DNA of 64,000 bases from a phage. Of this stretch, positions 11,612-62,522 are shown in pieces. The notes under the pieces were generated by a model. The model did not search any database. It had not been told where the DNA came from and saw only the letters and a list, made by a program, of their open reading frames with translations. The stretch's first letter is position 1, and every line of letters starts with the position of its first letter. The stretch lies in the NCBI GenBank assembly GCA_017003895.1, contig GCA_017003895.1_4520.1, one strand, 5' to 3'. The position numbers were made by a program, and so were the translations under genes.

Positions 11612-11652
11612 TTTATTCTCCAGATGTTTAAGTTGTTTATTGGTACAGGTCT

Positions 11653-11681
11653 ATAATAACATAACCTGTACCAAAGTAAAC
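11653..11681 (-). promoter_or_regulatory. Early (sigma70-type) promoter, GTTTAC-N17-TATTAT
   Basis: Minus strand reads cagTTTACtttggtacaggttatgtTATTATag; -10 lies in the loop of the inverted repeat ggtacaggt/acctgtacc. Confidence 0.55.
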
Positions 11682-12364: not shown

Positions 12365-12659
12365 TATAAATTCTCTTTAAATGAAAATGCAGGACTTATT
12401 GACATTGCCTGCGCAAGCCCTCAAGGGGAACATAGGTTTTGGATATTTAACGACAGGATAACCATAAACCCGTCATCATACCAACCACGACTTAGACAGA
12501 TAACCTTTTTCTGACGCGTGATAGTACAAAATACATTCAAGAGGTACACCGTAAAACTGCCGGGGCCTTAAAACTATAATGATTCGCAAATCATTAATCA
12601 GACAGTTCGACGGCTCCTCGATTTTCTAGCCGCACTTAAGGTAGCGAATCACCTAAAAC

Positions 12660-12908
12660 TTATTTAAGGGTAATAACAAAATGACGTACTGCTTTACGAG
12701 CTGCAGAAGCCAAAGGCTTAGCATATTTCAGTTCATCTTTTGCTTCCAGTTCAGAGGCCAAAGCTGCCTGTACCGGGTTCAGATGTTTGAAATAATGCAG
12801 GATTTCCAGTGCTTCGGCTTCAACATCAATCGACGCGCCGTAGTTTTCGTGACCGTTATTCCATGCGTTTCGTTGCAGTTCAAGAGCGTGTTGTAATTGT
12901 TTAATCAT
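12660..12908 (-). CDS. rIII: rIII lysis-inhibition accessory protein
   Basis: 82 aa, same length as T4 rIII; immediately downstream of gene 31 as in T4. Confidence 0.6.
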   Translation of the reverse strand: MIKQLQHALELQRNAWNNGHENYGASIDVEAEALEILHYFKHLNPVQAALASELEAKDELKYAKPLASAARKAVRHFVITLK

Positions 12909-15651: not shown

Positions 15652-15679
15652 TTCTATTTCCTCATTTGTTGGTAGAGTT

Positions 15680-15709
15680 ATAGTATCACAACTCCACCAC
15701 GTTGTAAAC
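15680..15709 (-). promoter_or_regulatory. Early promoter, GTTTAC-N18-TACTAT
   Basis: Plus gtaaac at 15704-15709 and atagta at 15680-15685; imperfect inverted repeat (ggtagagtt/aactccacc) flanks the -10. Confidence 0.5.
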
Positions 15710-17778: not shown

Positions 17779-17806
17779 TTAGATTTCCTCAATTATCCAT
17801 AGGAGC

Positions 17807-17836
17807 ATTATACTCTGCTCCCGAGAGTTTGTAAAC
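17807..17836 (-). promoter_or_regulatory. Early promoter, GTTTACA-N17-TATAAT
   Basis: Minus strand reads aGTTTACAaactctcgggagcagagTATAATgctcc; -10 sits in the loop of ggagca/tgctcc. Confidence 0.6.
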
Positions 17837-19212: not shown

Positions 19213-19242
19213 ATAGTAACACCTTCCTTGGTGTTTGTAAAC
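19213..19242 (-). promoter_or_regulatory. Early promoter, GTTTACA-N18-TACTAT
   Basis: Plus gtaaac at 19237-19242 and atagta at 19213-19218; upstream of the alc start. Confidence 0.5.
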
Positions 19243-20394: not shown

Positions 20395-20424
20395 ATTGTA
20401 CCACAATCCTTGTGGTGTGTAAAC
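20395..20424 (-). promoter_or_regulatory. Early promoter, GTTTACA-N18-TACAAT
   Basis: Minus strand reads aGTTTACAcaccacaaggattgtggTACAATtt, upstream of rnlA; spacer contains the ccacaa/ttgtgg inverted repeat. Confidence 0.45.
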
Positions 20425-27021: not shown

Positions 27022-27056
27022 TTTATTCTCCGCTTCACTTTTGATTTGATAGGGCT

Positions 27057-27086
27057 ACTATAACATAGCCCTATCTTGTTATAAAC
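27057..27086 (-). promoter_or_regulatory. Early promoter (GTTTAT-N18-TATAGT) with -10 inside a 10-bp inverted repeat
   Basis: Plus ataaac at 27081-27086 and actata at 27057-27062; perfect inverted repeat gatagggcta/tagccctatc (27048-27075) with loop ctataaca. Confidence 0.45.
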
Positions 27087-43477: not shown

Positions 43478-44110
43478 TCACAGTACGTTAGTTACAAGGG
43501 TAATGATTTCTTTGGACACATTAGGGAAGTCAATGTAAGTATATTTACCACCGATCTTAATCTTAACATCATTTTCAAGAGAAGTAAACAGCTTTGATTC
43601 AGTTTCTGACATGTTGTATGCAAAGATTCTAAGAGCGCCATCTCGTCGAATTTCAATTTGGCGAATACCTAGAACTCGTTTTGCAAATCTAACTTCCAAG
43701 TTACTACGGTTTTCACCAATTTCCTTAACTTCAACTTTATCTTTAATATTTTCAAAAACAAAGTTTGCTAGTTCATGCATTTCAGGAGTAACTCCACGTG
43801 CTTTTCTAGTGTTACGTTTCTGAAGAAGTTCTGGAGCATTTTCTTGGGCAAAGAGGTCTGCAGCTTTTTGGATAATATCCATTGCTTCGCCGGTTGCCAC
43901 AAGTCCATCACCAGATTTTTCGACTAAACCTTTCTTAATCAATACACCAATGTTAGAGTTAACAACTGATGCATTGTATTCTGCTTCCAGAGCTTCACGG
44001 ACATTGGCAGCAGTGGTGAAGTTGTTCTTAATGATATAAACCATTATTGCAGCAGTTTTTTCATTCAGAGCGTTTTCAGAAGCTTTGATGATGTAAGTAA
44101 CTTTAGACAT
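43478..44110 (-). CDS. motA: Middle-transcription activator MotA
   Basis: Track ORF is 240 aa; the recalled T4 MotA N-terminus (MSKVTYIIKAS) starts at the internal ATG at 44108-44110, giving 210 aa (T4 211 aa). Confidence 0.85.
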   Translation of the reverse strand: MSKVTYIIKASENALNEKTAAIMVYIIKNNFTTAANVREALEAEYNASVVNSNIGVLIKKGLVEKSGDGLVATGEAMDIIQKAADLFAQENAPELLQKRNTRKARGVTPEMHELANFVFENIKDKVEVKEIGENRSNLEVRFAKRVLGIRQIEIRRDGALRIFAYNMSETESKLFTSLENDVKIKIGGKYTYIDFPNVSKEIITLVTNVL

Positions 44111-44147
44111 TTTATTTCTCCAAATTAGTATTTGTTTTGATAGGTCT

Positions 44148-44176
44148 ATAATATCATGTTTGAAGCACATGTAAAC
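44148..44176 (-). promoter_or_regulatory. Early promoter for motA, GTTTACA-N17-TATTAT
   Basis: Plus gtaaac at 44171-44176 and ataata at 44148-44153. Confidence 0.5.
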
Positions 44177-44195
44177 TGTTTTGTGAGAAAAAATG

Positions 44196-44219
44196 CACAA
44201 AAGGGAGCTTCGGCTCCCT
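44196..44219 (-). terminator. CUUCGG tetraloop hairpin terminator between gene 52 and motA
   Basis: gggagc-ttcg-gctccc; followed on the minus strand by UUUU. Confidence 0.5.
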
Positions 44220-46410: not shown

Positions 46411-46454
46411 GCTAATTTCCTCAATTGATTAATGTTTTTGTAATCCATGAGAGC

Positions 46455-46483
46455 ATTATACTCTGCTCTCAAGAGTTTGTACA
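46455..46483 (-). promoter_or_regulatory. Early promoter for ndd (TGTACA-N17-TATAAT) with -10 in hairpin loop
   Basis: Minus strand reads tTGTACAaactcttgagagcagagTATAATgctc; inverted repeat gagagca/tgctctc (46449-46470) flanks the -10. Confidence 0.55.
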
Positions 46484-46486
46484 ATT

Positions 46487-46687: not shown

Positions 46688-46715
46688 TTTGTGTTCCTCA
46701 TGTTTCAGTAGGACT

Positions 46716-46745
46716 ACTATACCATAATCCTACTGTGTTGTAAAC
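46716..46745 (-). promoter_or_regulatory. Early promoter, GTTTACA-N18-TATAGT
   Basis: Plus gtaaac at 46740-46745 and actata at 46716-46721; imperfect inverted repeat around the -10. Confidence 0.45.
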
Positions 46746-46937: not shown

Positions 46938-47201
46938 TCATATCTCAACTTCCACGAGTTCCATATATCCTTTGTTGATAACCTCTTTAAGGTCTTTAGA
47001 AAGAATGACATTAAAATGGTCATTCATATGTCCATTAACCAGACGAGTTATTTCGGCTTCAGATGACATATAAGGCACGTCCGAGTCCCAATGAGATAGT
47101 CCCAAATGGGTATAAATCATCCCTTCGTCGTCTGCAGTGTTGTACATTGAAACAAATTCGCCTGTTACTTTATGTTTTGCGTAGAAAAATTTAAATTTCA
47201 T
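46938..47201 (-). CDS. Hypothetical protein
   Basis: 87-aa ORF preceded by an early promoter. Confidence 0.5.
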   Translation of the reverse strand: MKFKFFYAKHKVTGEFVSMYNTADDEGMIYTHLGLSHWDSDVPYMSSEAEITRLVNGHMNDHFNVILSKDLKEVINKGYMELVEVEI

Positions 47202-47227
47202 AATGTTATCCTCTTTTAGATAGGACT

Positions 47228-47257
47228 ACTATATCATAGTCCTACTTAGTTGTAAAC
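47228..47257 (-). promoter_or_regulatory. Early promoter (GTTTACA-N18-TATAGT) with -10 in hairpin loop
   Basis: Plus gtaaac at 47252-47257 and actata at 47228-47233; perfect 7-bp inverted repeat aggacta/tagtcct (47222-47243). Confidence 0.5.
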
Positions 47258-48060: not shown

Positions 48061-48086
48061 AAAGAAAAAAGGGGACCGAAGTCCCC
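48061..48086 (-). terminator. CUUCGG tetraloop hairpin terminator after rIIB
   Basis: ggggac-cgaa-gtcccc; followed on the minus strand by UUUUUU. Confidence 0.55.
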
Positions 48087-55830: not shown

Positions 55831-55859
55831 AATATTCTCCTCTTGTTTTGATAGGTCTA

Positions 55860-55889
55860 TAGTATCATAGACCATAGTTGTTGTACATC
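55860..55889 (-). promoter_or_regulatory. Early promoter (TGTACA-N18-TACTAT) with -10 in hairpin loop
   Basis: Plus tgtaca at 55884-55889 and atagta at 55860-55865; inverted repeat ggtcta/tagacc (55855-55874). Confidence 0.45.
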
Positions 55890-56412: not shown

Positions 56413-56438
56413 ATTATTCTCCTCTTGTTGATATGGTT

Positions 56439-56467
56439 ATAATATCAAAACCAGAGGAGAAGTAAAC
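56439..56467 (-). promoter_or_regulatory. Early promoter, GTTTAC-N17-TATTAT
   Basis: Plus gtaaac at 56462-56467 and ataata at 56439-56444. Confidence 0.5.
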
Positions 56468-57972: not shown

Positions 57973-58002
57973 ATTATACTCCAACCATCCTTGGTTGTAA
58001 AC
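57973..58002 (-). promoter_or_regulatory. Early promoter, GTTTACA-N18-TATAAT
   Basis: Plus gtaaac at 57997-58002 and attata at 57973-57978. Confidence 0.5.
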
Positions 58003-61884: not shown

Positions 61885-62466
61885 CTAAAAATTCAACATT
61901 TTCAAATGAATGATTTTGTATAATCGAGATAAAGGGTCATATTCTAAGTCTTCAATTTCCACAATCTCAAATCTAGAGATACCTGAGACCATGTACTCTT
62001 GTTCAGATTCAATCATATCTAGGACGTCAACACGCTTTTCTTCCATAACATGCTTAGGGTTCTTTCCGGCGAGTACAATGTTAACCATGTTTTGGTAGTA
62101 ATCAAAAATGAATGGAGCATTCCTGAGACTAAGAATAGTGTACGTCTGATATTCCCATCTCCCAGAGAATTGACGAGCTGTACTGAAATCAGTTGTGAAC
62201 GATGTTACTCGTCCAGGAGACCAATGGCATCCAACAGAAAGAAGTGAAAGACGTTCTACTTCTTCTGGAGTTACACCACGGTAGAGTTCTACTGGTACTG
62301 TAGAAGTCATATGCTTACGAACAAGATGGTCTAATTCATAGTGGAAATCCGGGTCTTCCTTAGAATCGGTGCAAGCCCAGAGAATGTTTTGTTCTTGGCG
62401 GGTGAATTTGCTATCAATCAGATTTGTTAGGTATTCACGTTCTTGAAGTTCAGATTGACATGTCAT
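61885..62466 (-). CDS. Mod-family ADP-ribosyltransferase (modA/modB paralog; probably ModB by position)
   Basis: 193 aa; R-S-E ART triad candidates (LYRGVT, SFTTDF, EQEYMVS). Confidence 0.7.
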   Translation of the reverse strand: MTCQSELQEREYLTNLIDSKFTRQEQNILWACTDSKEDPDFHYELDHLVRKHMTSTVPVELYRGVTPEEVERLSLLSVGCHWSPGRVTSFTTDFSTARQFSGRWEYQTYTILSLRNAPFIFDYYQNMVNIVLAGKNPKHVMEEKRVDVLDMIESEQEYMVSGISRFEIVEIEDLEYDPLSRLYKIIHLKMLNF

Positions 62467-62493
62467 GATAGACCTCCATTTAAAGATAAGCCT

Positions 62494-62522
62494 ATCATAA
62501 CACGAGAGGAGGGAATGTAAAC
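62494..62522 (-). promoter_or_regulatory. Early promoter, GTTTACA-N17-TATGAT
   Basis: Plus gtaaac at 62517-62522 and atcata at 62494-62499. Confidence 0.45.

Follow-up and report, generated by a model that had tools for sequence, protein, structure and literature searches.

Why should the -10 hexamer of an early phage promoter lie in the loop of an inverted repeat? The question is raised by a predicted promoter on the minus strand (47220-47257) of contig GCA_017003895.1_4520.1 (GenBank assembly GCA_017003895.1), a 64,000-nucleotide (nt) stretch of phage DNA analysed here over its whole length and referred to as the window. A preliminary description of this sequence had proposed that at least six promoters share the arrangement. 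All six repeats quoted there are present; the arrangement is genuine, robust in statistical terms and biologically meaningful. The hairpins represent a published class of element, the PeSLs (strong sigma-70-like promoters fused to stem-loops), in a new lineage; they are non-random and, as a class, largely known.

The 4-kb stretch around the 47257 promoter (rIIB-52-ndd-denB region) shares 96.7-97.4% identity with RB69 and further Mosigvirus phages, and gene order in the whole window is that of Escherichia phage AlbertHofmann and of T4 (118.9-168.9 kb plus 0-15 kb). Judged by these comparisons, the window is from an RB69-like Mosigvirus, a T4-type phage. A study that predicted 57 early promoters in RB69 does not mention repeats (Nolan et al. 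2006). Early genes are on the minus strand and early promoters are therefore on that strand too. Promoters were defined blind to repeats, as matches to [GAT]T[GT]TA[CT]-N17/18-TA[TC][ATG][AG]T with a Shine-Dalgarno sequence and a start codon downstream. The pattern matches 28 times (24 on the minus strand) against 9.6 expected in shuffled sequences; the curated set comprises 21 intergenic predicted early promoters of the GTTTAC-N17/18-TATAAT type, every one on the minus strand. The promoter class had been correctly recognised in the preliminary description, but not the spacer, given there as 17 nt: it is usually 18 nt after GTTTAC, equivalent to 17 after TTTACA. A-rich runs lie 5' of the -35 elements, and a Shine-Dalgarno sequence and an ATG lie 3' of each promoter, the ATG being 25-44 nt past the -10 in most cases. 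For 16 of the 21, the upstream open reading frame (ORF) has its stop codon -1 to 12 nt from the -35, often as TAGTTTAC. Where stop codon and -35 overlap in this form (e.g., 62525-62517, 27089-27081 and 20427-20419), coding sequence and promoter are contiguous, without free intergenic DNA.

Eight of the 21 promoters (47257, 46745, 46484, 27086, 17836, 11681, 55888 and 56467) have the -10 in the loop of a perfect inverted repeat of 6 or more base-pairs (bp). Promoter 15709 makes a ninth -10-centred case, with 12 bp, once G·U pairs are allowed. The hairpins are listed below (free energies are for RNA; aa, amino acids); promoter 56467 is taken up further on, with the variant geometries.

47220-47257, minus strand: early promoter with -10-centred hairpin; -35 GTTTAC at 47257-47252, -10 TATAGT at 47233-47228; arms GTAGGACTAT (47245-47236) and GTAGTCCTAT (47229-47220); stem at 47221-47244 of 8 bp perfect, 10 bp with G·U; upstream ORF stop 12 nt before the -35; 87-aa ORF downstream (46938-47201).

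46706-46745, minus strand: paralogous promoter and hairpin; arms CAGTAGGATTAT/GTAGTCCTACTG, -10 TATAGT at 46721-46716; stem at 46706-46735 of 8 bp Watson-Crick, 12 bp with G·U, -16.8 kcal/mol, z -5.8; 66-aa ORF downstream.

46448-46484, minus strand: ndd promoter, TTGTAC-N18-TATAAT; hairpin TGAGAGCA-gagtataa-TGCTCTCA, 8 bp (46448-46471).

27048-27086, minus strand: frd.1 promoter, GTTTAT-N18-TATAGT; hairpin GATAGGGCTAT-gttata-GTAGCCCTATC, -18.7 kcal/mol, z -6.6.

17801-17836, minus strand: promoter GTTTAC-N18-TATAAT; hairpin GGGAGCA-gagtataa-TGCTCCT.

15670-15709, minus strand: cd.3 promoter; hairpin TGGTGGAGTTGT-gatact-ATAACTCTACCA (15670-15699), 12 bp including G·U, 5 bp Watson-Crick.

11640-11681, minus strand: 30.8 promoter, GTTTAC-N17-TATTAT; hairpin TTGGTACAGGTT-atgttattata-GACCTGTACCAA, stem at 11640-11674 of 11 bp perfect, 12 bp with G·U.

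55854-55888, minus strand: promoter ATGTAC-N18-TACTAT; hairpin GGTCTAT-gatact-ATAGACC, stem at 55854-55873 of 7 bp, z -5.2; 75-aa ORF downstream.

In minus-strand orientation, the 5' arm occupies the spacer, in agreement with the preliminary description, which had placed one stem arm there. The loop, 6-14 nt long, holds a TGn-TATAAT-like -10 and the 3' arm spans approximately -8 to +2. The predicted folds place the end of this arm at about +1 to +6 and leave the Shine-Dalgarno sequence, situated further 3', unpaired. Two cases (46706-46735 and 15670-15699) were missing from the six loci listed initially, and four stems (47221-47244, 46448-46471, 11640-11674 and 55854-55873) turn out to be longer than quoted; the statement that stem sequences vary between loci is borne out. 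Some of the promoters form paralogous cassettes (pairs 47257/46745 and 17836/46484). The 46484 ndd promoter, a paralogue of the 17836 promoter, is also a paralogue of T4 P-motB (GGGACCA/TGGTCCC), with compensatory changes in the arms. The outermost pair of the 17836 hairpin is G·U in the window and A-U in phage AlbertHofmann.

The enrichment test suggested in the preliminary description places the repeats clearly above chance. Among the 597 -10-like hexamers of the window (TA[TC][ATG][AG]T) that do not belong to promoters, 3.7% reach 6 bp, against 8 of the 21 promoters (binomial p = 4.5e-7). When the left half of one promoter was joined to the right half of another, a null that keeps position-specific composition, 5% of the chimeras reached 6 bp, compared to 8 of 19 regex-defined promoters (permutation p<5e-5). 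The 47257 locus alone is modestly unusual (minimum free energy of the RNA -13.2 kcal/mol, z = -2.4); the signal comes from the ensemble of loci. When every dyad axis between -15 and +15 was scanned, the axis proved to be sharply fixed at +0.5, between hexamer bases 1 and 2, with a mean Watson-Crick run of 3.5 versus approximately 1.1 at most of the 60 other axes. A smaller second peak at +6 (2.7) stems from the conserved TGATA and TATCA motifs. The latter is part of a ccTATC(A) motif at the predicted start site, kept in all early promoters (e.g., 47228-47216 and 44148-44136); together with the extended -10 TGATA it generates a second, consensus-driven dyad of 5 bp (TGATA/TATCA) centred 6 nt into the hexamer.

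Stem covariation in related phages, which the preliminary description had also put forward as a check, is observed: orthologous promoters keep the pairing with different arms. Related loci (L numbers) were assembled through alignment of the pseT protein and gp30.8; a search with the Ndd protein gave only three near-identical loci. The arms of the frd.1 promoter, GATAGGGCTAT/GTAGCCCTATC in the window, are replaced by GTAGGGTAGT/ATTACCCTAT in a T4-like phage, by AGGCTAT/ATAGCCT in L031 and L033 and by ATGGGGCTAT/ATGGTCCCAT in L034. Those of the 30.8 promoter, GGTACAGG/CCTGTACC, are kept across four genera despite diverging flanks, and are swapped for TTGGTGTAGGAGTAT/GTACTCTTACACCAA in the more distant loci L039 and L040, amounting to two double compensatory changes. 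At the cd.3 promoter, the T4 orthologue (Pe133295) has GGTAGAGTT/AGCTCTACC, and window and T4 differ only by A-U to G·U switches. For a formal count, 63 distinct Tevenvirinae promoters with an 18-nt spacer were aligned without gaps and scored over a ten-pair helix. Paired cells made up 65.7% of the total, against 59.0±1.3% in shuffled alignments (0 of 500 reaching the observed value) and 33-49% when the partner was slid. Double-sided changes were found in 86 cells versus 46±7 in the shuffled alignments (0 of 500).

The T4 cd.3 promoter carries a further peculiarity. A note in the T4 RefSeq entry, concerning L007 14397-14410 (T4 133300-133313), states that these 14 nt are the "inverted complement of previously reported sequence", and thereby corrects Pe133295. 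The corrected segment is the exact loop between the GGTAGAG and CTCTACC arms of the promoter hairpin. The earlier T4 sequence therefore had the loop flipped, either by artefact or through a real inversion between the arms.

The mismatches found inside the stems point to the strand on which pairing matters. Internal mismatches with Watson-Crick pairs on either side, counted on the sense strand of 38 distinct hairpin promoters, comprise 15 G·T, no A·C and one T·T (these events are not all independent). Mean stem length rises from 5.3 (Watson-Crick) to 6.8 pairs if G·U is allowed, but stays at 5.5 if A·C, the equivalent of antisense G·U, is allowed instead. Sense RNA also folds better than antisense, as at cd.3 promoter 15709 (-16.9 versus -8.0 kcal/mol). 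Together, the fixed axis, the compensatory changes and the sense-strand-only tolerance of wobble pairs constitute well-supported, sequence-level evidence that pairing has been selected. The G·T/A·C asymmetry favours a single-stranded structure of the sense strand, for which RNA reading through from upstream would be the simplest candidate. The predicted start site being downstream of the 5' arm, folding is confined to read-through RNA: with the start site set at 7 nt past the -10, promoter-initiated leaders yield 0 to -5 kcal/mol, and read-through RNA of the same region -8 to -22 kcal/mol.

The arrangement closely resembles that of the PeSLs, described in RB49 and phi1 (Arbiol et al. 2010, PMC2839356) and extended to PST/T4 and nt-1/KVP40 (Comeau et al. 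2014, PMC4122927). In the former study, the stem-loop is mostly located between -35 and -10 or overlaps the -10, and G-T pairs are noted; the stem-loops are proposed to be terminator/attenuators as well as recombination sites, and one of them, from RB49, lowered lacZ read-through. We re-derived the RB49 geometry and found the same two classes as in the window, one centred on the -10 (GGGGGTA-gtaata-TACCCCC) and the other in the spacer (AGGGGATC-ggt-GATCCCCT). The window shares with PeSLs the strong sigma-70 early promoter with an AT-rich upstream region and a fused stem-loop between the upstream stop and the downstream Shine-Dalgarno/start; the two commonest geometries (eight -10-centred and four spacer hairpins, in or beside promoters in intergenic positions); G-T pairs; many repeated copies beside small ORFs; and cassette indels, of which there is one bounded case, in a cassette that has no -10-centred hairpin. 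ORFs following hairpin promoters are indeed small (median 83.5 versus 174 aa, p = 2e-4). The differences concern the lineage, here Mosigvirus; the -35, which is GTTTAC instead of TTGACA; the arms, of mixed AT/GC composition (e.g., TAGGACTA) instead of polyG/polyC; and, relative to PST/T4, the position of the stem-loop, placed by the authors just upstream of the promoter and centred here on the -10. The fixed dyad axis, the covariation among orthologues and the sense-only G·U tolerance are not reported in the PeSL papers, and our literature search found no paper linking PeSLs to RB69. We conclude that there is good support for regarding the -10-centred hairpins as PeSL-type cassettes whose pairing is under selection.

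The spacer class is represented in the window by four hairpins (promoters 58002, 20424, 19242 and 5137), including:

57982-57997, minus strand: CAACCA-agga-TGGTTG, between -35 and -10 of promoter 58002-57973.

20400-20416, minus strand: ACCACAA-gga-TTGTGGT, in the rnlA promoter (20424-20395).

19218-19235, minus strand: AACACC-aaggaa-GGTGTT, in the alc promoter (19242-19213).

A common CCA(A)GGA(T/A)GG-like core (ACCACAAGGATTGTGGT, ACACCAAGGAAGGTGT, CCAAGGATGG) recurs at 58002, 57445, 20424, 19242 and 5137 (minus strand) and in T4 at L006 2458 and L007 48183. Judged by this core, the spacer-class hairpins look like one diverged paralogous family, present in T4 as well.

What, then, might a -10-centred hairpin do? 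The promoter takes up the whole intergenic space, the upstream stop touching or overlapping the -35, and any structure belonging to the upstream cistron is therefore superimposed on a strong sigma-70 promoter. With somewhat more confidence than doubt, we interpret the -10-centred hairpins as PeSL-type cassettes of an RB69-like phage in which an RNA hairpin, formed in read-through transcripts alone, marks the 3' side of the upstream cistron. A transcript initiated at the promoter would lack the 5' arm and have an unstructured leader, whereas read-through RNA would form a hairpin of 7-12 bp some 10 nt or more past the upstream stop codon. Such a hairpin could serve as an attenuator, as a pause site or weak terminator, and/or as a barrier to 3' exonucleases, and might insulate neighbouring early transcription units. 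Repeated promoter-hairpin cassettes could, in addition, provide homology for cassette gain and loss and gene shuffling. A comparison over eight phage regions showed stronger hairpins at promoters that directly adjoin an upstream ORF with no canonical terminator in between (-10.3 versus -5.0 kcal/mol; Mann-Whitney p = 3e-4, orthologues not being independent). The suggestion, made in the preliminary description, of a 3' end or processing signal for the upstream transcript thus survives in part: the sense-only G·T pairs, the compensatory changes, the read-through-only folding, the upstream-ORF context and the proposal of the PeSL authors all fit, but there is no U-tract. That the hairpin acts in RNA, and what its biochemical role is there, we infer from sequence patterns.

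Several observations weigh against the interpretation just given. Promoters and start sites in the window phage are predictions. A U-tract is absent 3' of all eight -10-centred stems (1-3 T in the first 8 nt), which makes classical intrinsic termination unlikely; a sense-strand terminator scan of the window does not call these hairpins, and the ARNOLD terminators annotated in the related genome MK373774 lie elsewhere, none of them at these hairpins. Experimental evidence from PeSLs comes from a single stem-loop (RB49 211/210), which is followed by TATACT and belongs to the GC-rich spacer class, not to the -10 class. Orthologue-based p-values overstate independence because the sequences are related, and the column consensus is itself partly self-complementary, as shuffled-column alignments are still 59% paired. 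Finally, in the T4 regions examined, the -10-centred form occurs at only about four early promoters (dmd, motB, 30.8 and cd.3). By the same criterion as in the window the T4 count is approximately 2 of 23, plus two more with larger loops or wobble pairs, and the expectation of equal prominence in T4 was accordingly rejected. The scarcity of -10-centred cases in T4 implies that the hairpin is not required for early-promoter or operon function.

Intrinsic terminators resemble the window hairpins in having a stem-loop soon after a stop codon in sense RNA, and differ in having the U-tract and in lacking loops of 6-14 nt. Canonical tetraloop terminators do exist on the minus strand of the window, at 48071-48086 (GGGGAC-TTCG-GTCCCC, then TTTTTT) and 44202-44219 (AGGGAGC-CGAA-GCTCCCT, then a T-run); the latter closely precedes the motA promoter, which has no hairpin, an order also seen in PeSLs of the T4/PST type. 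A simple scan also flagged 47221-47244 as an antisense (plus-strand) terminator owing to the T-richness of the -35 region in reverse complement. This candidate was rejected, as on the plus strand G·T turns into A·C and antisense folds are weaker. The idea that the 27086 hairpin replaces the gene 32 terminator was likewise dropped, the downstream ORF being frd.1 and the AlbertHofmann offset showing that the upstream gene is not gene 32. REP elements, the malE-malF hairpin and the RNase III hairpins of the T7 early genes are intercistronic structures that, although not terminators, define or protect 3' ends. The window hairpins would likewise stand between cistrons of a polycistronic RNA; their stems fall short of the length of canonical RNase III sites. 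An Rfam scan of the whole window returned no match at the gathering threshold, and the literature search found no usable 3'-end or start-site maps for T4 or RB69 and no earlier report of dyad symmetry at T4 early promoters.

Among the alternatives, the least unlikely, though unlikely nonetheless, is that the cassettes are primarily a recombination device, the hairpin and approximately 40-90 nt of repeated promoter sequence promoting cassette exchange (excision, insertion, mini-circles) and any effect in RNA being secondary. Crossovers in or next to the stem-loop, and mini-circles, were reported in RB49/phi1 (PMC2839356), and the paralogous cassettes and small ORFs described above are in line with such a history. 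Moreover, AlbertHofmann contains two motA-type copies of promoter, leader and first codons (L001 43846-43929 and 44165-44250), 84-91% identical and 321 nt apart, flanking an extra small ORF; the window has one copy (44102-44177) without that ORF. From this comparison, the difference between the two phages is a cassette indel bounded by duplicated promoter sequence. Yet the cassette that bounds the indel (promoter 44176) has no -10-centred hairpin, and homologous exchange needs sequence identity rather than intrastrand pairing, leaving the compensatory changes and the sense-only G·T pairs unexplained. Recombination is, besides, compatible with an RNA role and does not exclude it. Near rIII, window positions 12481-12660 and L001 12158-12409 show a short replaced segment (179 versus 251 nt), with a regex promoter match at 12549.

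Slightly less likely again is translational control specific to read-through RNA, in which the hairpin would make the read-through mRNA a poorer template and the next cistron dependent on its own promoter. Control of this kind is established in the T4 genes e, soc, 49 and I-TevI, where hairpins with an internal promoter hide the ribosome-binding site (reviewed in PMC3014915). As in the window, the 5' arm there lies upstream of the internal start site, so that upstream transcripts fold and promoter-initiated RNA is open; in those genes, however, the promoters are late ones and the Shine-Dalgarno/AUG is hidden, whereas the 3' arms of the eight -10-centred hairpins end short of the Shine-Dalgarno and leave it free. 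Sequestration of the ribosome-binding site is predicted at only two variant hairpins in the window:

62459-62504, minus strand: variant hairpin of promoter 62522-62494; the -10 region is the 5' arm and the GGAGG Shine-Dalgarno plus AUG of a 193-aa ORF the 3' arm.

56417-56461, minus strand: variant hairpin in which the spacer of promoter 56467, TTCTCCTCT, is the exact complement (9 bp) of the downstream Shine-Dalgarno region, AGAGGAGAA.

The first folds with -22.5 kcal/mol in read-through RNA and -3.0 kcal/mol in promoter-initiated RNA and, by analogy, is the T4 e/soc/49 logic at an early promoter. The second (-17.6 versus 0 kcal/mol) would, according to the predicted folds, hide the ribosome-binding site in read-through RNA only. 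Two near-identical T4 promoters upstream of alc and alt.-3 (L007 17433 and 4190, minus strand) have a spacer, CCTCGTGTTGTGTTA, that pairs over 15 bp (with G·U) with TGACATAACATGAGG or TAACATAACATGAGG, Shine-Dalgarno included; the pairing is kept in several T4-like loci. These hairpins, like those of 62522 and 56467, pair the promoter region with the Shine-Dalgarno/AUG in read-through RNA alone, and speak for translational control of this kind.

We regard as improbable a third alternative, namely control of the promoter at the DNA level, with a cruciform, a hairpin of the non-template strand, or a dimeric or structure-specific factor modulating access to the -10. The dyad axis coincides exactly with the -12/-11 junction, the point at which promoter melting begins. 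Furthermore, the strand asymmetry alone leaves this alternative standing because sigma-70 reads the non-template strand, and this is the favoured, G·T-tolerant one. The nearest parallels are cruciform-dependent promoters and the N4 virion RNA polymerase promoters, the latter with a template-strand DNA hairpin of 3-nt loop that is read by a phage RNA polymerase. They share with the window the coincidence of an inverted repeat and a phage early promoter; the window promoters, in contrast, are ordinary extended -10 sigma-70 promoters, and approximately 60% of equally good ones have no repeat. Gating by a dimeric factor or by DNA extrusion, as envisaged in the preliminary description, does not hold up, for neither the common arm sequence of an operator nor the equal pairing of both strands of a cruciform was found. 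The arms differ completely between loci, which leaves no common recognition sequence, and the complementary strand that a cruciform needs has A·C mismatches (at cd.3 promoter 15709, its -8.0 kcal/mol fold has z = -1.0). Arms of 6-12 bp with loops of 6-14 nt extrude poorly, as expected from established cruciform energetics. Hairpin strength, in addition, follows the upstream ORF context and not promoter features. More doubtful still is the specific form in which a non-template-strand hairpin acts as a promoter-intrinsic DNA device, showing the -10 bases single-stranded or hiding them after passage of an upstream polymerase. Were this the case, promoter firing or early shut-off would be coupled to local transcription and supercoiling, and the -12/-11 axis would be a functional feature; a link is conceivable with the shut-off of early promoters, whose mechanism reviews describe as still unexplained (PMC2988021, PMC3014915).

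The remaining possibility, that the repeats have no function and arise incidentally from the self-complementarity of the promoter consensus, or by chance in AT-rich DNA, can draw on the pairing of TRTG before the -10 with T(A/G)TA inside and after it, on the second, TGATA/TATCA dyad and on the residual pairing of shuffled columns, but is rejected as very improbable, since the arm-swap and row-permutation nulls, both of which keep the consensus, are exceeded, non-promoter -10-like sites seldom carry the repeats, orthologues show compensatory changes and the differing arms argue against one recent duplication making the promoters non-independent.

With the -10-centred hairpins read as PeSL-type cassettes that may act in read-through RNA, the PeSL concept comes to include the RB69/Mosigvirus lineage as well as orthologous promoters throughout the Tevenvirinae. 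This bears on the annotation of transcription units in therapeutic T4-like phages, and on the engineering of such phages, since mutation of the spacer and discriminator of these promoters is constrained.

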